A stretch of DNA of 64,000 bases from Candidatus Iainarchaeum sp. (GTDB taxonomy: Archaea; B1Sed10-29; WALL01): assembly GCA_023129115.1 (NCBI GenBank), contig JAGMCR010000009.1, positions 6,121 to 70,120 of the forward strand, in the 5' to 3' direction. Positions 3,721 through 59,302 of the stretch are shown here, piece by piece; within the stretch, counting starts at the first letter, position 1, and each line of letters starts with the position of its first letter. Under the pieces are notes generated by a model that searched no databases, had not been told where the DNA came from, and saw only the letters and a list, made by a program, of their open reading frames with translations. Position numbers and translations under genes: made by a program.

Positions 3721-4997
3721 AACTTACAAAACTTCTGCGCTTTCTTCAAAGTGTTTTTTTCGTTTAGCCGCAGGATTTTCTGGTCGCGCATCACGAGTTC
3801 GCCGTTGATAATTGAGTGGATGACGGGAGAGTCCGCGAACAATGCCTTTTGCAAGAGCGAAGAGTCGTCCTGCGGCACCACGCGGTCGCGCATCGAGACC
3901 ACTACAAGGTCGGCGAGCGAGCCCGGGGCCAAAGTTCCTGTGGCGTGGCCGTACAGCCGCGAGTTGAACGCCATCGAAAGCAATTGCTTCAGCGACAACT
4001 GCTTGCCAAGCGTCTGCTGCAGCAGCAAGGCGTTCGACAATTCGCGCCGCAGGTCATTGCTCATGTTCGCCACGGGGTGGTCGACCCCAAGGCCCACCGC
4101 GACGCCCGCCTCAAGCATGTCCGCCACAGGCGCAATCCCCGTGCCGAGGTTCAGGTTCGCCGTCGGGCAGTGCACCACAGTCACGCGGCTTTTGGAGAGG
4201 AGGAGCACGTCCTTCTTGGAGACATTGACCGCGTGCACTGCCAGGGAGTGGTCGCTCAACACGCCGAGGTCGTACAGGTAGCGCACGCTTGTCTTGCCAG
4301 TTCGTTGTAATACAAATCCTTTTTCGCCGAGCGACTCCGCAACGTGCAGGTGCACGCCGGTGTGGTTCTCGACCGCGAGCTGCCTCACGGTCTTGATTAA
4401 GCTCTCGGTCGCCTCGACCTCGTTCGCGAGGCCGAACATTCCCGACAAAAGAGGGTGGTCCTCGAGGCGCTTGACCAGCCACTCGTTTTCCGGCAGGGAC
4501 TTGCAGTCAAAAGTTGCGCTGGTCTTGATGTCGCGGTCCTTGAGCGCGAGCGCCATCGTCCCGCGGAGGCCGAGGCGGTCCAATGCCTTCAGCACGGGCT
4601 TCGACCACCTCGCGTTGATGTTGTTGATGGTGGTGGTGCCGGTGTGCAGGAACTCGAGGCCGGCGACCAGCGCGCCGAGGTAGGCGTGGTTGTCCGTCAT
4701 TTTTTTCTCGAGGGGAAACAAGACGTTTTCGAACATCTCGAAGAGGGGCATGCCCACACCAAAGCCCTGGGCGAGGCCGAGCGCCATGTGGGTGTGCGCG
4801 TTGATGAAGCCGGGCATCACGAGGCAGCCCGTGGCGTCAATCCGGTCGTAGCGCTTGTGCGACTTGCGCATCTTTTCCTTGCCGCCGACGCCGGTGATAA
4901 CAGTGTCCTCGACCGCCACGGACTGCTCCCTCAGGGAGTAGTTGGGCTGGAGGACTTTGCCGTTTTCGATTAACAGAGACACGCTTAAACACCACAA
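3717..4997 (-). CDS. Amidohydrolase, nucleoside (MTA/SAH/adenosine) deaminase-like
   Basis: Metal-binding INAHTHM motif near the N-terminus and an amidohydrolase-fold length. The track start is TTG 4997; GTG 4982 is an alternative. Confidence 0.65.
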   Translation of the reverse strand: MWCLSVSLLIENGKVLQPNYSLREQSVAVEDTVITGVGGKEKMRKSHKRYDRIDATGCLVMPGFINAHTHMALGLAQGFGVGMPLFEMFENVLFPLEKKMTDNHAYLGALVAGLEFLHTGTTTINNINARWSKPVLKALDRLGLRGTMALALKDRDIKTSATFDCKSLPENEWLVKRLEDHPLLSGMFGLANEVEATESLIKTVRQLAVENHTGVHLHVAESLGEKGFVLQRTGKTSVRYLYDLGVLSDHSLAVHAVNVSKKDVLLLSKSRVTVVHCPTANLNLGTGIAPVADMLEAGVAVGLGVDHPVANMSNDLRRELSNALLLQQTLGKQLSLKQLLSMAFNSRLYGHATGTLAPGSLADLVVVSMRDRVVPQDDSSLLQKALFADSPVIHSIINGELVMRDQKILRLNEKNTLKKAQKFCKF

Positions 4998-5011
4998 ATG
5001 ACGAGGTTATC

Positions 5012-5018
5012 TTTATAT
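5012..5018 (+). promoter_or_regulatory. TATA-like box of the por operon
   Basis: TTTATAT lies about 29 nt upstream of ATG 5045. A second box (5026-5035) faces the divergent amidohydrolase gene. Confidence 0.45.
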
Positions 5019-5044
5019 CCGGTGCTGGTTTTTAAAGATACACC

Positions 5045-5572
5045 ATGATGGAAATACGCTTTCACGGGCGCGGCGGGCAGGGCGCCGTTACGGCAGCAGA
5101 AGTCCTTGCGGTCGCAGCATTCAAGGACGGCAAGTACGCGCAGGCCTTCGGCAAGTTCGGGCCGGAGCGCCGCGGCGCGCCGGTCCAGTCCTTCACGCGG
5201 ATTAGCGACGAGCCGATTAGGATTAGGCAGGAGGTCTACGAGCCAGACTGTGTCGTGGTGCTGGACGCGAGCCTCATGAAGGTCGTGGACGTCAGGGAAG
5301 GGCTCAAGGAAGGCGGCATCCTGATAATCAACACTGGCGAAGAAGTCGCCGGCGCGTGGGCCGTCGACGCCACCCAAATCGCCATGGACGTAATCGGCAA
5401 GCCCATAGTGAACACGGCGATGCTCGGCGCGTTCAACAAGGCCAGCGAGTGCGCGGTCACGCTGGACTCGCTCACCGAGGCAATCAAGGAAAGGTTCCCG
5501 GGGAAAATCGGGGAACTCAATTCAAAAGCGATAGTGAAGGCCAGCGAGGGCTGCGCCTGCTGTGAGGTGTGA
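5045..5572 (+). CDS. porG: 2-oxoacid (pyruvate-type):ferredoxin oxidoreductase, gamma subunit
   Basis: N-terminus [19 protein letters not shown]...GPERRGAP is the gamma-subunit signature. It is the first gene of a 4-gene gamma-delta-alpha-beta operon. Confidence 0.85.
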
Positions 5573-5826: not shown

Positions 5827-6945
5827 ATGGTGAAAAAGATTGCCGAGGGGAGCCACGCCGTGGCAGAAGTCGTGCGGCTTCTGAACCCGGACGTGCTGGC
5901 AATGTACCCAATCACTCCGTCGACACATATCCCTGAGCGGCTGAGCGACTTCGAGTCCGACGGGGAATTGGATGGCACGATAATCCGTGTCGACTCAGAG
6001 TTTTCGGCGATGTCCGCGCTCGTGGGCGCGAGCGCGACTGGCGTGAGGACGTACACGGCGACGAGCAGCCAAGGGCTGGCACTAATGCACGAGGTCTTGT
6101 TCGTCGCGTCCGCGATGAGGCTGCCGATTGTCATCACGGTCGTGAACCGCGCGCTTAGCGCGCCATTGAATATCTTTAACGACTGGCAGGACTCGATTAG
6201 CGAGCGCGACTCGGGATGGATACAGATGTACGGAGAGGACTCGCAGGAAGTCGCGGACCTGATGGTGCAGGCGTACCGCATCGCGGAAGACAAGAGGGTG
6301 CTGCTGCCGGTCATGGTGTGCATGGACGGCTTTTTCTTGAGCCATACCTACGACGTGATTGACGTGCCCGAGGACCTGAAGGGGTTCGTGCCTCCGTACA
6401 AGCCAGAGCACGCGTACCTGGACCCGAAGAGGCCGCAGACGCAGGGCGCGTGGGCCATGCAGGAGCCCTACTTCGAGCTGAGGAAAGAGCTGGAGGAGGC
6501 GGTGGGCGCGGCGCTGCCAGTGATAAAAGAGGTTCATGACGAGTTTGCGAAAGTGTTCGGCCGAAGTTATGGGGGCGGGGCCATTGATGTCTATGGCGAG
6601 GGCGACACTGTCGTTGTGTCCATGGGCAGCGTGTGCACCAACCTAAAGGTCCTTGCCGACAGGCTGGGCTTCCAGGTGGTGCGCGTGAGGTGCTACCGGC
6701 CGTTCCCGGCCGAAGACGTTAAGAAGGCGCTGGAGGGGAAGAAGGCGGTTGCGGTGTTCGAGAAGGACGTTGCGTACGGCACTGGCCACGGCGCGCTCTA
6801 CAACGACGTGCGGGCGTGCACGACGGGCAAGGCAGTGAACTTCATCGTCGGGCTCGGCGGGCTGGACGTCCCAATCAATGCACTGGAGAAGATGTGCGGG
6901 GAGATAGATGCCATGAATGACGGCGAGACGAGGTGGCAGAGATGA
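5827..6945 (+). CDS. porA: 2-oxoacid:ferredoxin oxidoreductase, alpha subunit
   Basis: 372 aa. The N-terminus EGSHAVAEVVRLLNPDVLAMYPITPST is typical of alpha subunits. The operon context supports the call. Confidence 0.85.
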   Translation: MVKKIAEGSHAVAEVVRLLNPDVLAMYPITPSTHIPERLSDFESDGELDGTIIRVDSEFSAMSALVGASATGVRTYTATSSQGLALMHEVLFVASAMRLPIVITVVNRALSAPLNIFNDWQDSISERDSGWIQMYGEDSQEVADLMVQAYRIAEDKRVLLPVMVCMDGFFLSHTYDVIDVPEDLKGFVPPYKPEHAYLDPKRPQTQGAWAMQEPYFELRKELEEAVGAALPVIKEVHDEFAKVFGRSYGGGAIDVYGEGDTVVVSMGSVCTNLKVLADRLGFQVVRVRCYRPFPAEDVKKALEGKKAVAVFEKDVAYGTGHGALYNDVRACTTGKAVNFIVGLGGLDVPINALEKMCGEIDAMNDGETRWQR

Positions 6946-6951
6946 CTATGA

Positions 6952-7010
6952 TGCCTCTGGGGGCATCTGTTGATGCCCCCAAGTCTACCGCGCCAGCTGA
7001 GGTTTCGGCT
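6952..7010 (+). repeat. G-run hairpin mini-element, copy a (inserted between porA and porB)
   Basis: Sequence is TGCCTCT-GGGGGCATC-tgtt-GATGCCCCC-AAGTCTACCGCGCCAGCTGAGGTTTCGGCT. It has a perfect 9-bp stem (6959-6967 / 6972-6980). It is bracketed by the 16-bp direct repeat GAGGTGGCAGAGATGA (6930-6945 and 7016-7031). Confidence 0.8.
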
Positions 7011-7027
7011 GAGATGAGGTGGCAGAG

Positions 7028-7915
7028 ATGAGTAGTGAAGTTATTTCGTCTGGGCACTCGGCTTGCGCCGGGTGCGGCGAAATCATTGGCGAGCGCATGG
7101 TGCTCGAGGCGCTGGGCAAGGACGTGATTGTTTGCCAGGCGACGGGGTGCATGGAAATCACTACAACGCCTTATCCGCGGACCGCGTTCAAGGTGCCGTG
7201 GCTGCACGTGACTTTCGAGAACGCGGCGTCTGCCGCCAGCGGGATTGTCGAGGCCGACAGGAAGCTCGGCCGCAATACCACTGTCGTGGCCATCGGCGGC
7301 GACGGCGGCATGATGGACATCGGGGTTCGCGCCTTGAGCGGGGTGATGGAGCGGGGCCACGACCTGATGCTGGTCGTGACCGATAACGAGGCGTACATGA
7401 ACACCGGGATACAGCGGTCGAGCGGCACGCCGAAGTACGCGGCGACTACGACTACTCCGGCGGGCAGCGTTGTGCCTGGGAAGAGGGAGTGGAAGAAGAG
7501 CATTTCGAGGATTGCGATTGCGCACGGGATTCCGTACGTCGCGACGGCAAGCATTGGGTTCCCCGAGGACCTGGTGGCCAAGGTAAAGAAGGCCCAGGGC
7601 ATCAAGGGCCCAAAGCTGCTGCACATTTACACGCCGTGCCCTGTGGGGTGGGGGTATGACTCGAGCAAGACGGTTTACTACGCCAAGAAGATTGTCGAGA
7701 CCGGGCTGTGGCCGCTTTACGAGATAGAGAACGGGAAGCTCACGATAAGCCAGAGGCCGACGTTCGCGCCGCTGGAAGAATATTTCACTGGCCAGAAGCG
7801 GTACAAGCACATCAAGCCCGAGCACATCAAGGAAGTCAGTGAGCGCGTCAAGGCTGGCTGGAAAGAACTGGAAAAGCAGGAGAAGGCCGGCGTCGACTTG
7901 ATGCTTCTTCCCTAG
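7028..7915 (+). CDS. porB: 2-oxoacid:ferredoxin oxidoreductase, beta subunit (TPP-binding)
   Basis: N-terminal SGHSACAGCG cluster and the TPP motif GGDGGMMDIG. ATG 7028 is preceded by GAGGTG. The track start at GTG 7019 lies inside the duplicated 16-mer. Confidence 0.85.
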   Translation: MSSEVISSGHSACAGCGEIIGERMVLEALGKDVIVCQATGCMEITTTPYPRTAFKVPWLHVTFENAASAASGIVEADRKLGRNTTVVAIGGDGGMMDIGVRALSGVMERGHDLMLVVTDNEAYMNTGIQRSSGTPKYAATTTTPAGSVVPGKREWKKSISRIAIAHGIPYVATASIGFPEDLVAKVKKAQGIKGPKLLHIYTPCPVGWGYDSSKTVYYAKKIVETGLWPLYEIENGKLTISQRPTFAPLEEYFTGQKRYKHIKPEHIKEVSERVKAGWKELEKQEKAGVDLMLLP

Positions 7916-10184: not shown

Positions 10185-10250
10185 TGCCTCTCTTAAGGGG
10201 GGCTACGCCAATTGGCGTAGCCCCCCAAGTTGTGGGGATTAACCCCCATA
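10185..10250 (+). repeat. G-run hairpin mini-element, copy e
   Basis: TGCCTCT-cttaa- followed by the perfect 30-nt palindrome GGGGGGCTACGCCAATTGGCGTAGCCCCCC (10197-10226), then AAGT. A small second hairpin TGGGG-attaac-CCCCA follows at 10233-10248. The 3' boundary is uncertain. Confidence 0.7.
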
Positions 10251-48741: not shown

Positions 48742-49428
48742 TCAACCACTCGACGTTAGCTTTTCGCCCTTCTCGTTTTTAATGATAGGCACGGCCACGA
48801 CTTCCAGTGGCTGGAGCCCGAGCTCGATGCGCTTTTCATTGATTAGGTCGGCGCTGGGCCTCGTCTCGTCGCTGACCACGATGGTGCTGAACCGCGGCTC
48901 AAGCGCAAAGCCGTAGACGTCATCTATCTCGCAAATCACTGCGCCCCAGCCCATTTCCGAGAGGAACCGCTCGAGGCCTGCCTGCCTCTCCGCGAACGAA
49001 GGCACGTTGGAGTGCTTGGAAGACGCGAACTCGTCGCTCGTCAAGCCGATTTCCACTATCTTCCCAAGCGCGAACGCCATGCTGAACAAGTACTCGTGGC
49101 CCTTGTGGATAGCGCTGAAGGTCCCGCCAACACAGACCATGTCGCCCTTCTCTGCCGAAGCGTCCGGGAGGCGGATGTGCTCCAGGGAGCTGGAAGGAGT
49201 GGCAGCACTGGAGGAGCCGGCTTCTTCGCCACTGGGGGGGCTGGCAACTGCCAGCCCCCCGGTTTCAGCTTCTTCCTCCCCCGGTTGTGGCTCCTCTTCG
49301 ACGGTTTCTGGCTCTTCTTCAGTTTCTTGTTTTTCCTCCCCGGTTTCTTCTTCGGGCTCCAAAAGCAGGTCCTCGTCTTCTTCAATGTCCATTGCCGGGT
49401 CCAGCGGCGGGGGTGGGGGGCTGTTCAT
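48742..49428 (-). CDS. coaD: Phosphopantetheine adenylyltransferase (archaeal type) with a 96-aa acidic low-complexity N-terminal extension (or start at ATG 49140)
   Basis: The catalytic domain begins at MVCVGGTFSAIHKGHEYLF (nucleotidyltransferase H-x-G-H). Upstream is an in-frame P/E-rich region that contains a hairpin-element palindrome. Confidence 0.7.
   Translation of the reverse strand: MNSPPPPPLDPAMDIEEDEDLLLEPEEETGEEKQETEEEPETVEEEPQPGEEEAETGGLAVASPPSGEEAGSSSAATPSSSLEHIRLPDASAEKGDMVCVGGTFSAIHKGHEYLFSMAFALGKIVEIGLTSDEFASSKHSNVPSFAERQAGLERFLSEMGWGAVICEIDDVYGFALEPRFSTIVVSDETRPSADLINEKRIELGLQPLEVVAVPIIKNEKGEKLTSSG
49235..49270 (+). repeat. G-run hairpin element-like palindrome embedded in an ORF, copy f
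   Basis: GGGGGGCTGGCA-AC-TGCCAGCCCCCC (49235-49260) followed by GGTTTCAGCT (compare GGTTTCGGCT at the end of copy a). It reads in frame as ETGGLAVASPP on the minus strand. Confidence 0.55.
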
Positions 49429-52329: not shown

Positions 52330-53399
52330 TAATCAAGCAGTCGCCGCAAGATTTTGTTGTCGAAGAAATAACTCTTGACGGGGAAGTGCTGGAGGTCGGG
52401 AAAGAATATTCTTTTTCTGGTGGGGAGGGAGAGCACCTTGTTTTTGTGCTGGAGAAGACAAACTGGGCGACTATGGGCGCGATGAAGGAATTGGGAAAGC
52501 GCTTGCATTGCTCGGAAAAGCGCTTGGGGTTCGCGGGCACCAAGGACCGGCGCGCCGTGACAACGCAGAGGTGCTCTGCGTGGAACGTGAAGAAGGAAGA
52601 GCTTGACAAAGTAAATATAAAAGACATAACGCTGAAGCCGCTCTGCTATGGCGAGCGCGTGGGGCTCGGCGACCTGTGGGGGAACAGGTTCACGATAACA
52701 GTGCGGGAGTTCGACGGCGAGGGAAAAATGCCGGAGAAAATCCCGAATTTTTTCGGGCCGCAGCGGTTTGGGGGGCAGAGGCCGATAACCCACCTCGTCG
52801 GCAAGGCGATTGTGAACGGCCAGTTCCACGACGCCGCCGACATATACCTTTTTGAGACGATGGAGGGCGACCCGGAGAGGGAAGTGCGGGAGAAATGCAG
52901 GGGCGACTACGCCCGCGCCCTCAAGGAATTCCCGATGCACCTTAAGTACGAGCGGTCGATGCTTGGCTGGCTCGCGAAGAGCCCGGGCGACTGGGTGGGT
53001 GCGCTGCGGGCATTGCCGCGGAAATTGCTGGTGATGTTCGTTCATGCTTACCAGTCGCACTTGTTCAACCGCGTGCTCGAGGAGCGGGGCATTGAGCCGA
53101 GGAAAGGGGACGTCCTTGAGGAGGGAGTGCCCACGGGCCCGCTGTTTGGCATGGAGTGCCCGCTCGCCGCCGGGGAGGCGGGCGAGATTGAGCGCCGCGT
53201 GCTTGAGGGCGAGTGGCTGGGGCTGAGGGACTTCGAAATCCACGGCATGCCTGACCTGACGAGCAAGGGCATGAGGCGGAGGCTCTGGATTGAGCCGAAG
53301 GGCTTCGAGGTGTTGGAGGGGGGCGGGAGCTGGATAAAAGTAAGGTTTTCGCTGCCGAAGGGGTGCTACGCGACTACTGCGTTAGATTACCTGAAGTAG
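52326..53399 (+). CDS. truD: tRNA pseudouridine synthase TruD/Pus7 family
   Basis: FAGTKDRRAVTTQ catalytic-Asp motif, and NFFGPQRFG. Confidence 0.85.
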   Translation: MIIKQSPQDFVVEEITLDGEVLEVGKEYSFSGGEGEHLVFVLEKTNWATMGAMKELGKRLHCSEKRLGFAGTKDRRAVTTQRCSAWNVKKEELDKVNIKDITLKPLCYGERVGLGDLWGNRFTITVREFDGEGKMPEKIPNFFGPQRFGGQRPITHLVGKAIVNGQFHDAADIYLFETMEGDPEREVREKCRGDYARALKEFPMHLKYERSMLGWLAKSPGDWVGALRALPRKLLVMFVHAYQSHLFNRVLEERGIEPRKGDVLEEGVPTGPLFGMECPLAAGEAGEIERRVLEGEWLGLRDFEIHGMPDLTSKGMRRRLWIEPKGFEVLEGGGSWIKVRFSLPKGCYATTALDYLK

Positions 53400-53400
53400 A

Positions 53401-53500
53401 TGCCTCTGGGGGGCGTCAACTGCCACCGGCTTAGGGGGGCGCCGACTGGCGCCCCCCTAGTCCATTGCGATGGCTTGGTAGTCTAACGCGAAGTTATCCT
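53401..53500 (+). repeat. G-run hairpin mini-element, copy b (composite/nested)
   Basis: It starts 1 nt after the truD stop with TGCCTCT-GGGGGGCGTCAACTG, whose 15 nt GGGGGGCGTCAACTG match copy c. A complete hairpin TAGGGGGGCGCC-gact-GGCGCCCCCCTA follows at 53432-53459, then TAGTCCATTGCGATGGCTTGGTAGTCTAACGCG. It is bracketed by GTTAGATTACCT at 53381-53392 and 53506-53517. Confidence 0.7.
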
Positions 53501-54353
53501 AAGCTGTTAGATTACCTTCAGTAAGGTTTCCCGGCTCGGCAGGAATGGCCAAGAAGTACGGCAGGCCTTCCCTCAGGAGCCCTATTGTCGCGTTGACCGC
53601 TTTTTGCGAGTCGCCGGGGGCGGGCTGTATGTCTATGGTCGAGTTGCCCACGTGCACCTGTGTCGTGGGGTAGGACGGGTAGCGCAGGATTATGGACGGC
53701 TCCTCGAGGGCCTGGCGGCACTTTTCGACCGGGACTTGCGCGTTTGAGCTGTTGGTGCACGAGAGCCAGTCGCCGTCCGCCTGCACGCCGTAGACGCTCA
53801 CGTTCACCCCCTCTGACGCGAGGTGGAAGACGAGCGGCACGAACGCGTCGACTGCTCCCTGGGGGTCTTCGCCGGGCTTTACCTCGAAAAAGAAGTTCAC
53901 TTCGGGGGAGTAGCCCAGCAATGCCGCCTTGAGCAGGGGGTTCCAGTGGTACGAGTAAAAGATTATGCCTGCCTGCTTGTCGCCGGCGGCGTTGTAGTCT
54001 ACGTAGAGGCCTTCCGAGTTGTGCAGGAGCTTGTGGCCGTTCTCGTCAGTGGCGTAGACGCTTATTTGCTTAAGGCCGACGTCGTCGTACGGCGAGACGA
54101 AGTAGCTGAAGAAGTAGCTGTTGCCCTCCTGCCTGTCAAGGGTGGCCTCGCGGTCCGGGAGGAGAACTGATATCTGGTTGAGCGGAATGCTGGAGTCCAC
54201 GCGTATCGTGGCGTAGCCTATGGCTGCGGGCTGGGGATGGGCGGAGACATTGAGCTCGGCGCGCTCGCTGTGGGACGTGCCGAAGTACGAAGTGATGCCT
54301 ATTGAAATGACGACTATAAGGGCGAGGAATATCCATTGCTTTTGTGCTTTCAT
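53499..54353 (-). CDS. Secreted protein with signal anchor, several N-x-S/T sequons, function unknown
   Basis: N-terminal MKAQKQWIFLALIVVISIGITSYF. It is downstream of, and possibly co-regulated with, the large surface protein gene. Confidence 0.55.
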   Translation of the reverse strand: MKAQKQWIFLALIVVISIGITSYFGTSHSERAELNVSAHPQPAAIGYATIRVDSSIPLNQISVLLPDREATLDRQEGNSYFFSYFVSPYDDVGLKQISVYATDENGHKLLHNSEGLYVDYNAAGDKQAGIIFYSYHWNPLLKAALLGYSPEVNFFFEVKPGEDPQGAVDAFVPLVFHLASEGVNVSVYGVQADGDWLSCTNSSNAQVPVEKCRQALEEPSIILRYPSYPTTQVHVGNSTIDIQPAPGDSQKAVNATIGLLREGLPYFLAIPAEPGNLTEGNLTA

Positions 54354-57752: not shown

Positions 57753-58049
57753 ATGGTCAATCCCGCCAACTTCACGGCGCTGCCCATTGCATTTAACGAG
57801 CCGAGCGGGCTCATAGTGCTCGCCGTGGGCGCAGTCGTCGTCGTTGCCGCGTTCTACATATTCTTCCGCATAATCAAGGACGTCATCGCAAACGCCATAA
57901 TCGGCGGAATCGGCTTGATAGTGCTGCACTTCGCCGGCCCACACATCGGCGTCAGCGTGCCCATCGACTTGATAAACATCGTAATCGCCATCCTCGGCGG
58001 ATTGCCGGGACTGGCCATAATAGTCGTTTTCTCGGCTCTTGGGCTATAG
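57753..58049 (+). CDS. Small membrane protein, BofA-like (tentative)
   Basis: 98 aa with 3 hydrophobic helices. The pattern IANAIIGGIGLIVLHF...INIVIAILGGLPGLAIIV recalls the BofA family. I start at ATG 57753. Confidence 0.4.
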   Translation: MVNPANFTALPIAFNEPSGLIVLAVGAVVVVAAFYIFFRIIKDVIANAIIGGIGLIVLHFAGPHIGVSVPIDLINIVIAILGGLPGLAIIVVFSALGL

Positions 58050-58110
58050 CCTAGCTCAGTAGACTAGGGGGGCGTCAACTGACGCCCCCCCTAGGCTGGT
58101 TTGAATTAAG
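58050..58110 (-). repeat. G-run hairpin mini-element, copy c
   Basis: Plus strand: CCTAGCTCAGTAGACTA-GGGGGGCGTC-aact-GACGCCCCCC-CTAGGCTGGTTTGAATTAAG, with the stem at 58067-58076 / 58081-58090. Its two ends abut the TAG of the BofA-like gene and the TAA of the duplicated radical SAM tail. Confidence 0.75.
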
Positions 58111-58198
58111 TTATTTGAATACTCCAGCAATCTTCGCGCTGCACGACGGGCACTTCCCCTTGTCCACGTGGCTTTCCAGCAGCGCGAAGCCGTGCCGC
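58111..58198 (-). pseudogene. Displaced duplicate of the last 29 codons of the radical SAM gene
   Basis: The minus strand reads RHGFALLESHVDKGKCPSCSAKIAGVFK-stop, versus RHGFALLESHVDKGKCHSCGQKIAGVFK-stop in the real gene. 58149-58198 is identical to 58294-58343 (50/50). The last 39 nt differ at 14 positions. Confidence 0.8.
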
Positions 58199-58254
58199 AG
58201 CCCAAACCTGAGCTGGCGAGGTAGACTTGGGGGGCACAAAGCCCCCCAGAGGCA
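58199..58254 (-). repeat. G-run hairpin mini-element, copy d
   Basis: The reverse complement is TGCCTCT-GGGGGGC-tttgt-GCCCCCC-AAGTCTACCTCGCCAGCTCAGGTTTGGGCT. It starts 1 nt after the radical SAM TAA. Its flanks are nearly identical to copy a. Confidence 0.8.
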
Positions 58255-58255
58255 G

Positions 58256-59302
58256 TTACTTAAAAACGCCGGCAATCTTCTGCCCGCAGCTGTGGCACTT
58301 CCCCTTGTCCACGTGGCTTTCCAGCAGCGCGAAGCCGTGCCGCTTTATCAATGCCTCGCCGCAGTTGGGGCAGTGCGTGTTCTCGAACGGGTCGCCGGGA
58401 TAAGTGTTGCCGCAGTACACGTACTTCACGCCGCTCTCGAGCGCGATTTCCCTTGCCTTTACGAGCGTCTCGCGCGGGGTGGGGTTGGTGTTCCGCATCT
58501 TGTACGCGGGAAAGAACGCGGAGAAGTGGAGGGGCATGTTTGGGTCGAGGTCGTGCACGAACTCCGAGATTTGTAGTATGGACGCGTTGTCGTCGTTCTG
58601 GCCGGGGATGATGAGGTTGGTCACCTCGACCCAGGTCTTGTTCCGCTTCATTCTTTTTATTGAGTCGAGGACGTGCTGCATCTCGACGCCGCCGCACACT
58701 TTTTTGTAGAACTCTTCGTTGCCCTTTACGTCGACGTTGGCGGCGTCCAATTCCTTGTAGTCCTTGAGCATTTCTTTGGTCATGTAGCCGTTCGTGACGA
58801 AGACGTTCTTGATTTTTTGTTTGTGCGCGAGCACGCTGGTGTCCTTGGCGTACTCGTAGAAAATCGTTGGCTCCGTATAAGTGTAGCTGATGCTTGGTGT
58901 TTTGTACTCGCCCGCCAATCGCACGACTTCACTTGGCGGGACCTCGCGCTGCGGCCCGGCCTCCCACGCGGCCTGGCTGATTTCCCAGTTCTGGCAGTGC
59001 TGGCAATGCAGGTTGCATCCCACAGTCGCGATGCTGAGGGTTTCGGTGCCCGGCAAAAAATGAAACAGCGGCTTTTTTTCGATGGGGTCCGTGTTGACCG
59101 AGCATGGCTTGGCGTACGTCATTGCGTACAGGGTGCCGCGGATGTTCTCGCGCACCTGGCAGTTGCCCCTGCCGCCCTCGGGGATTTTGCACCGCCGGTT
59201 GCACAGGCTGCACTGGACGGCCTTGTCCTTGAGCTTTTTGTATAGGTACGCTTCTTTCACGCGAGAGACAAAGCGCCCCGCCGATATAAAGGTTTTGTGC
59301 AA
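58256..59302 (-). CDS. AmmeMemoRadiSam-system-type radical SAM enzyme (PflA-like activase family)
   Basis: CNLHCQHCQNW radical SAM cluster, an N-terminal CSLCNRRCKI cluster and a C-terminal CPNCG...CHSCG zinc ribbon. Confidence 0.75.
   Translation of the reverse strand: MHKTFISAGRFVSRVKEAYLYKKLKDKAVQCSLCNRRCKIPEGGRGNCQVRENIRGTLYAMTYAKPCSVNTDPIEKKPLFHFLPGTETLSIATVGCNLHCQHCQNWEISQAAWEAGPQREVPPSEVVRLAGEYKTPSISYTYTEPTIFYEYAKDTSVLAHKQKIKNVFVTNGYMTKEMLKDYKELDAANVDVKGNEEFYKKVCGGVEMQHVLDSIKRMKRNKTWVEVTNLIIPGQNDDNASILQISEFVHDLDPNMPLHFSAFFPAYKMRNTNPTPRETLVKAREIALESGVKYVYCGNTYPGDPFENTHCPNCGEALIKRHGFALLESHVDKGKCHSCGQKIAGVFK

Follow-up and report, generated by a model that had tools for sequence, protein, structure and literature searches.

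In archaea, integrated mobile genetic elements (iMGEs) are bordered by attachment (att) repeats of 8-69 bp, take the ends of both tRNA and protein-coding genes as targets, and supply the gene that they enter with a new stop (PMC6563490). In Escherichia coli, the element e14 lies between icd and the C-terminal pseudogene icdC, and its excision is seen as a cluster of synonymous changes (PMC13626634). We analyzed a stretch of 64,000 nt (hereafter, the window) from the DPANN archaeon Candidatus Iainarchaeum sp. (GenBank assembly GCA_023129115.1, contig JAGMCR010000009.1, positions 6,121 to 70,120), in which a radical SAM gene is followed by a short hairpin element, here called element d, and then by a second, displaced version of its own 3′ end. 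Our preferred reading, for and against which we see about equal weight, is that element d is a small, gene-less, mobile structured element integrated behind the radical SAM stop with att-like repeats of the gene end on both sides. The interpretation offered in an initial annotation of the locus is supported in part: stacked alleles are real and recur, but they have clear precedents. The novelty lies in an insert that consists of a structured element of 56 nt without any gene.

The resemblance to e14/icd and to the archaeal iMGEs comprises several features. The insert lies between direct repeats, of which one falls within the 3′-distal part of the gene, and the replacement tail with its stop lies on the element side while the displaced tail lies on the far side. 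As at icd, the two tails differ largely at synonymous sites. As with the iMGEs, tRNA 3′ ends are among the targets, the repeats (18-50 nt) fall within the archaeal range, and unoccupied sites exist in relatives, namely, in the single-amplified genome (SAG) AM-311-L14 (record L001) and in record L082 for the radical SAM gene, and in records L086 and L088 for the por genes. The initial annotation had been unable to match a tail-replacement process to any described system; this claim does not stand, since integrative elements show the same signature (e14 at icd/icdC, PMC13626634; archaeal iMGEs, PMC6563490). Unlike e14 and the iMGEs, the insert here measures 56-97 nt and carries no integrase or other gene, one and the same short element is found at several unrelated targets, and the gene tables of records L166, L167, and L175 yielded no partner recombinase. 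Moreover, unlike the situation at e14, the tail in use here looks vertical and not foreign.

A further relevant class is formed by the cis-mobilizable elements (CIMEs), such as those at the 3′ end of fda in streptococci, which are flanked by att sites, devoid of recombination genes, and able to accrete in tandem at one att site. CIMEs are kilobases long and represent decayed integrative conjugative elements. The present locus likewise has no integrase and lies between repeated copies of a gene 3′ end, and at least two elements are stacked with an internal repeat between them (d and then c at the radical SAM gene, two fragments at a tRNA gene in record L085); unlike CIMEs, what is found here is a conserved 56-nt structured unit. 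In the literature, we found no description of hairpin repeats flanked by long gene-end duplications, only the integrative-element analogues mentioned above.

Two ends of the radical SAM gene

The radical SAM gene, of the AmmeMemoRadiSam type, occupies positions 58256..59260 of the minus strand and encodes 334 aa, as delimited by the open reading frame (ORF) list, its homologues, and Pfam PF04055; an alternative TTG start lies at 59302, and the members of the homologue cluster measure 334 and 348 aa. Within its coding region, a repeat search located the left copy of a 50-nt identical block (58294..58343, minus strand; RHGFALLESHVDKGKC), which is followed by tail A (58256..58293, minus strand; (C)AC AGC TGC GGG CAG AAG ATT GCC GGC GTT TTT AAG TAA). 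Tail A is the tail in use, is of the CH type, and ends in the stop TAA of the gene (58256-58258, minus strand). Two bases, CT (58254-58255), separate this stop from element d (58198..58253, minus strand), a unit of 56 nt and two hairpins (GCCTCTGGGGGG...CCCCCCAAGTCTACCTCGCCAGCTCAGGTTTGGGCTG) defined by covariance model R1 (82.6 bits), folding, and pair counts. The right copy of the block (58149..58198, minus strand; repeat search) begins directly at the 3′ end of d and leads into the displaced tail B (58111..58148, minus strand; (C)CG TCG TGC AGC GCG AAG ATT GCT GGA GTA TTC AAA TAA), which is of the CP type. After a 14-nt spacer comes element c (58040..58096, minus strand), assigned by covariance model and fold to the family of d (31 bits against the d model). 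The second helix of c shares bases with the stop of the BofA-like gene that converges on this locus (57753..58049, plus strand; 98 aa; PF07441). Each tail consequently has its own G-run/C-run hairpin element, and the minus-strand translation reads RHGFALLESHVDKGKC followed by HSCGQKIAGVFK in tail A or by PSCSAKIAGVFK in tail B.

Taken as a whole, the repeat search describes a direct repeat of 90 nt (58109-58198 and 58254-58343) with a spacing of 145 and 84% identity, between whose copies lies an insert of 97 nt (tail A and d) without any gene. The identity is very unevenly distributed, as the block is identical at 50/50 positions and all 14 differences fall at repeat positions 50-84; this contrast of 0/50 versus 14/40 (Fisher p = 2.6e-6) excludes simple duplication followed by decay. 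We also observed that a frame stays open from within tail A, via d, into the right block and tail B (58111-58275; 54-aa ORF with a TTG start). This frame is shifted by +1 relative to that of the gene (145 = 48 × 3 + 1) and is probably fortuitous.

The two tails were then compared with each other. Their 14 differences split 3:3:8 over codon positions 1:2:3, a skew that is marginal overall (8/14 at position 3, p = 0.058), and the last seven sense codons hold five differences, all of them third-position and synonymous; a Ser codon reads AGC in tail A and TCG in tail B. Tail B retains all of the conserved residues. In simulations, 14 random changes left at least 9 of 12 residues intact in 0 of 20,000 trials, and in 2.3% of trials when 40% of the changes were granted as free synonymous changes on a working copy; the equivalent simulations for a displaced tail at truD in the SAG, described below, gave 0.1% and 12%. 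The conserved residues together with these simulations indicate that tail B is not a decayed copy, and the comparison supports the view that tails A and B behave as two alleles rather than as a copy and its decayed twin.

Comparison with relatives gives the two tails different affinities. Measured against the two nearest relatives, tail A has 8/38 and 10/38 differing sites (gene-wide divergence, 17-21%), and tail B has 11/38 and 15/38. The CH type of tail A is that of the two closest relatives, and the CP type of tail B is that of the element-free outgroups. Because tail B has its Pro plus the codons CCG, GCG, and TTC in common with one of these outgroups (record L176), it has the look of an allele of ancestral type or of different derivation. 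No B-type tail that could have served as donor occurs among the 120 best homologues, and no second copy of the tail is present in the window or in the relatives' loci. Additionally, tail B holds the sequence GCAGCGCGAAG, which tail A does not contain and which is a perfect reverse complement to CTTCGCGCTGC, located in the block at a distance of 37 nt upstream (58132-58189); a single template switch on this pair could account for 4/14 of the differences. The resulting 11-nt inverted repeat adds little to the folding of the right copy (-34.4 versus -31.0 kcal/mol, with z-scores of only -1.7 and -0.3).

The arrangement was also traced in other assemblies. Neither the 334-aa product nor one protein from the middle of the window has a database record of its own. 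The protein is, however, recorded in a 348-aa form on an ENA scaffold (268,886 nt; sample SAMN18200505), and this second assembly is 100% identical to the window over 15.7 kb with both units included. A Logan k=31 contig from run SRR13892594 carries the BofA-like gene, element c, and tail B, and ends exactly 30 nt into the block, a break that is expected in a k=31 graph at a true 50-nt repeat. Since both long assemblies derive from one sample, their agreement is not independent proof. The initial annotation had warned of a possible misassembly, and this concern is met as far as the second long assembly contains both units, with the reservation that it stems from the same sample. Every factual statement of that annotation was confirmed, i.e., the layout, the 50/50 block, the 14 differences in 39 nt, and the codon details, and its arguments that simple duplication with neutral decay does not suffice and that two alleles of the same gene end are present are supported by the contrast and the simulations given above. 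The bias that it saw toward synonymous sites holds for the last seven codons, where all differences are synonymous, but over the whole tail it is the marginal skew already quoted.

A hairpin family and its insertion sites

Exact-pattern and hairpin searches detected d-type copies at four further sites, namely, between porA and porB in the window, behind truD in SAG AM-311-L14 (record L081), which is the nearest genome, and at por and a tRNA gene in two JGI contigs (records L084 and L085, respectively). The five copies align with a mean column identity of 86%, and the element at the radical SAM gene is ~90% identical to the copies at other genes. Their common fold consists of two independent helices of 10 and 7 pairs with a conserved 12-nt linker between them. 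Across the resulting 17 base pairs, 97.5% of the cells are paired and 5 pairs are changed on both sides, for instance, GGGGG/CCCCC to GGAAC/GTTCC and C-G to G-C, and the covariation score lies above those of 500/500 shuffles and of all slid controls. One U.G pair is invariant across the copies, and this wobble assigns the fold to the sense strand of the upstream gene; all copies have that orientation and lie just behind the gene end. The d covariance model also matches element c (31 bits) and an element behind truD in the window (23 bits), which identifies c and d as subtypes of one family. The initial annotation had assigned a different hairpin subtype to each tail, which agrees with this result as far as the subtypes are concerned; the tails, however, do not co-vary with them, as CH-type tails adjoin c-like elements in two relatives and d here.

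We regard these elements as a new structured repeat family with an unusual insertion signature. Against Rfam, only a tRNA-His passes the gathering score in the window, and the strongest sub-threshold match at the locus reaches E = 0.19. Public data hold few members of the family: GTDB genomes, scanned twice by pattern, returned one copy only, at the SAG truD, a metagenome scan for the family returned two contigs, and the covariance model run over 26 loci found nothing beyond the known copies. Two scans of viral contigs for a carrier virus or plasmid gave chance matches only. The nearest named relatives of the por genes of this host are Nanobdellati and Iainarchaeum metagenome-assembled genomes (MAGs).

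The initial annotation had advised a search for stacked tails at other element-bearing gene ends, and flanking repeats were found at por, at truD in two genomes, and at the tRNA gene; those at por, at truD in the window, and at the tRNA gene lie well outside the range of shuffled controls. The d-type element between porA and porB (6953..7011, plus strand; located by pattern search and by empty sites in relatives) is flanked by AGAYGAGGTGGCAGAGATGASTA twice (6926-6948 and 7012-7034; 23 nt with 2 mismatches, p < 2e-4), so placed that the left repeat retains the porA stop and the right repeat retains the ribosome-binding site and ATG of porB. Behind truD in the window, the covariance model and the repeat test delimit a composite element (53402..53506, plus strand) with an 18-nt repeat of the truD end (53381-53398 and 53506-53523; 16/18 identical, p = 2e-4). 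In the SAG, the 27 nt that follow the truD element read TTALGYLK*, as against the functional TTALDYLE* (18/27 identical, in frame, p = 0.004), and the differences of this displaced tail are again mostly synonymous. The insertion at the tRNA gene of record L085 has 23-nt flanking repeats (TTCAAATCCTGCCCCCTGCATTC and TTCAGATTCTGCCCCCTGCACTC, p < 2e-4). The repeats thus measure 18, 23, 23, 27, and 50-92 nt across the insertions. In every case, the right repeat begins at the last base of the element, and the left junction carries 2-7 extra bases (CT, AT, CTATGAT), or 88 nt at the tRNA.

Two of these sites show additional structure. The composite element behind truD in the window consists of a 5′ arm of d type, a core of c type, and then a d-like TAGTCTAACGCG, so that one element appears to have been inserted into, or recombined with, another. 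In record L085, positions 4990-5270 contain an intron-bearing tRNA (Rfam, 43 bits) that ARAGORN missed, and behind it follow, in order, a different hairpin, a degenerate stretch resembling a tRNA 3′ end (GGATCCCTACCCCCATGCA), the d-type element, and a second displaced 3′ end. This array looks like a series of stacked insertions at one tRNA.

Sites that lack the insertion clarify what is duplicated. At the radical SAM gene, one unit only is present in the SAG and in record L082, and the hairpin found there at the same place is unlike d. The por site is empty in records L086 and L088, where porA and porB overlap as ATGA. More distant relatives are element-free, and in them the radical SAM gene, truD, and their neighbor genes overlap by 4-12 nt (L083, 2681-2684 and 7354-7362; L176, 2298-2309; L177, 2956-2967; for comparison, L086 and L088 at ~2490). 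The elements are located exactly at these former overlaps, whether of convergent stops or of the porA stop and porB start. From the empty sites, it follows that the stacked tails are flanking repeats of an insertion, and together with the repeats at the other genes they describe insertions that duplicate the gene boundary; where neighboring ends overlap in a compact genome, only insertions of this kind spare both neighbors.

Traces of a right-hand copy were also sought at the single-unit sites. In the SAG, the 15 nt after the hairpin (L001, 4082-4111; GCGGCTATGGGTTTT) resemble the start of its own block at chance level (p = 0.07-0.10), and local-alignment scores of 17-24 occur elsewhere in the same locus. 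Record L082 contains a copy of the tail end (TCTTTGGCTTGTT) ~130 nt downstream, at about 717-735 (p = 0.007). Both stretches may be remnants of older right-hand copies; their positions are suggestive without being significant.

Origin of the stacked gene ends

Under the preferred reading, element d would have been inserted directly behind the radical SAM stop, folding on the gene-sense strand, and direct repeats of the target gene end would flank the insertion in the manner of attL and attR. The upstream repeat with tail A would form a complete working gene, and the downstream repeat with tail B would be the displaced gene end, no longer translated. The perfect 50-nt block would represent the recombination junction of the two copies, or would have been kept alike by recombination. 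The tails would then be alleles of the same 13 codons, one linked to or imported with the element and the other resident, and as two alleles of a working gene end they would differ mainly where the protein tolerates change. Element d would be the cargo of a miniature, non-autonomous integrated element. The observed order of repeat, 38-nt replacement tail with stop, 56-nt element, repeat, and displaced tail fits such an integrated element. We infer that the element is probably mobile, that recombination within the block (Campbell-type or ends-in), and not the filling-in of a staggered cut, made the join between the copies, and that a trans-acting enzyme exists; either of the two tails may be the incomer.

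Several observations weigh against this reading. The gene tables, which cover roughly 65 kb of the scaffold, contain no recombinase, transposase, or reverse transcriptase, and the insert is too short to have any coding capacity. For att-type integration, the element would have to share homology with each of its different targets, an awkward requirement for a repeat family that occurs at four unrelated genes. If the locus is read like e14, tail A ought to be the incomer, yet it looks vertical by the site comparisons given above. Support for the junction of d, the right block, and tail B comes from assemblies and not from individual reads. Both tails end in TAA plus CT and the relatives have TAG plus TT, a hint that the repeat's outer ends may share a recent origin. 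In the displaced tRNA fragment of record L085, the changes affect T-loop and T-stem positions that we take to be normally invariant, giving this fragment a decayed rather than an allelic look. Finally, the d-type set is small, with five copies in three or four genomes.

Part of this evidence can be read as a transposition-type insertion with a long fill-in duplication, either from nicks 92 nt apart or by target-primed reverse transcription, after which a 36-nt patch would have overwritten the unused right copy. We consider this a possible account, though an unlikely one. Its patch would stem from short-patch recombination with the DNA of a diverged relative, or partly from a template switch on the nearby inverted repeat, and the switch between GCAGCGCGAAG and CTTCGCGCTGC would cover 4/14 of the differences. 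The flanking repeats of variable length (18 to 92 nt), the exact 3′ junction next to a 5′ junction with 2-7 nt of filler, and the strand-specific folding with its invariant U.G pair are in keeping with it, as are the vertical look of tail A and the TAA plus CT common to both copies beyond the patch. Nevertheless, two rare events would be required at one spot, the B-type tail has no donor among the 120 best homologues, and the displaced truD tail of the SAG is equally allele-like, so that the coincidence would have to repeat. To our knowledge, moreover, no prokaryotic element makes target duplications of 90 nt.

A more far-reaching version of the preferred reading, which we put forward tentatively and judge unlikely, would see in these loci a gene-less cassette that combines ~13 replacement codons and a stop with a two-hairpin site of 56 nt, and that moves in and out of gene ends via a short block of identity with the host gene. 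Cassette-borne and resident tails would both be under selection, and 3′ ends together with the structured element would be exchanged between DPANN lineages.

That the duplication is instead ancient seems doubtful. The ancestor of the clade would have acquired it with the first hairpin insertion, leaving the right copy as a fossil of a CP-type tail, and the 50 nt would have been homogenised by repeated gene conversion. Tail B is about equidistant from tail A, the SAG, and L082 (14, 11, and 15 of 38, respectively) and shares codons with the outgroup L176, as such a fossil would; the resemblance of the SAG stretch GCGGCTATGGGTTTT to its own block start, at the same junction, would also be welcome to this account, but it stays within chance. 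At the age required, ~8 or more random changes are expected, and none has occurred at a conserved residue. Besides, the ~90% identity between d and the copies elsewhere is difficult to reconcile with an old insertion when the hairpin at the same place in the SAG and L082 is unlike it.

An assembly artefact is very unlikely. The 50-nt block could act as a shared graph node through which strain alleles (tail A with d, tail B with c) are threaded, or the chromosome could coexist with a 145-nt loop or array whose copy number is not readable from a contig; the break of the Logan contig within the block and the single sample behind both long assemblies are compatible with this. Even so, d must precede the start of the block in real reads, which places the duplication in at least one strain, and it would have to be explained how two strains identical over the block can diverge by 36% in the 39 nt that follow. 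The two long assemblies agree, and four other insertions carry flanking repeats, one of them spanned by a Logan contig and others located in other genomes. The weakest proposal, to which we give hardly any credence, makes the second unit functional, as an alternative C-terminus reached by frameshift or read-through, a silent tail-switching cassette, or a template/variable pair as in a diversity-generating retroelement: tail B is intact, the frame is open from tail A through d into the right block and tail B (the 54-aa ORF), and there is a weak, chance-level match to a frameshift hairpin family (E = 0.19), but a period of 145 is not divisible by 3, the stop is not preceded by any credible slippery site, the differences are spread over all four bases instead of being confined to adenines, the gene table has no reverse transcriptase nearby, and the right copy at por and at the tRNA has an obvious passive explanation. 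A diversity-generating retroelement proper was rejected, since the 14 differences cover all four bases in both directions and the gene table contains no reverse transcriptase.

If the element is mobile, as the preferred reading holds, it would rank among the smallest units with the behavior of an integrated element, complete with a replacement end for the gene and att-like repeats, in DPANN archaea, a host group whose mobile elements are barely described. It would imply that a compact genome with overlapping gene ends accepts insertions only when the gene boundary is duplicated, and it would provide a definite path along which housekeeping genes acquire terminal codons that are mosaic across lineages. 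In annotation and in population-genetic pipelines, loci of this kind would be mistaken for clustered synonymous single-nucleotide polymorphisms or for misassemblies. Should the locus reflect only a long target duplication and a recombination patch, a new repeat family with an unusual insertion signature would still be at hand.

Other repeat classes and additional hairpins

Several classes of short repeats share individual features with the d family. The elements recall repetitive extragenic palindromic (REP) sequences, including those arranged as bacterial interspersed mosaic elements (BIMEs) or as REP doublets forming hairpins (REPINs), in being short, G+C-rich imperfect palindromes at gene 3′ ends that form several subtypes and nest. 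On one strand, GTAG adjoins the palindrome (GGTAGACTWGGGGGG), and the antisense strand of both c and d contains GTAGACTWGGGGGG. REPs, in contrast, are not known with long target duplications at their flanks, and the host here is a DPANN archaeon whose elements possess a second conserved helix and conserved single-stranded segments. The gene tables, which cover part of one 268-kb scaffold, contain no REP-associated tyrosine transposase (RAYT) or IS200-type gene.

With MITEs (miniature inverted-repeat transposable elements), the family has in common that it is small, non-coding, multi-copy, flanked by direct repeats, and absent from the corresponding sites of relatives, and it differs from them in being oriented always sense to the upstream gene. 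Assignment to the MITEs was rejected, as there are no terminal inverted repeats (the ends GCCTCTGG... and ...GGGCTG are not complementary) and the repeat length is not fixed (18-92 nt). Integron cassettes also come as stacked units that each end in a folded hairpin, the attC site, and recognition of structure on one strand is plausible here as well; unlike in integrons, the "cassette" here is a fragment of the neighboring gene and no integron integrase is seen. An attC identity was discarded because the fold has two separate helices instead of one long imperfect hairpin and the alignment contains no R″/L″ and L′/R′ boxes (RYYYAAC ... GTTRRRY). Retroposition of the kind known from short interspersed nuclear elements (SINEs) would resemble these insertions in the variable target duplications, the exact 3′ junction with a ragged 5′ junction and filler, and the RNA-like structure. 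Unlike in that process, no reverse transcriptase or A-rich tail is seen here, and retroposition would yield identical repeats, leaving tail B unexplained. The elements were also considered as intrinsic terminators, which was rejected because the terminator scan reports neither c nor d, and d is followed by CGGCAC without a T-run.

About 10 G-run/C-run hairpins occur in ~78 kb, one of them inside an ORF. The latter (GGGGGGGCTGGCAACTGCCAGCCCCCC; 49234-49260) lies in frame within the ORF 48742..49428, where it falls in the acidic N-terminal extension of a CTP_transf_like protein and recalls palindromic elements that insert into coding regions. Another subtype, CTGCCTCTCTTAAGGGGGGCTACGCC AATT GGCGTAGCCCCCCAAGT, is located between two divergent genes (10197-10226; 5670-5699 in L086) and has no flanking repeat (p = 0.67); a similar hairpin is present at the corresponding place in the SAG genome. 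Three more G-run/C-run hairpins follow gene ends to the left of the window in the same genome (L167, 2662-2733 and 7268-7284). In the hairpin after the Spt5 gene in L167, the d linker CTCGCCAGCTCAG recurs with its order and orientation reversed, which points to a modular family.

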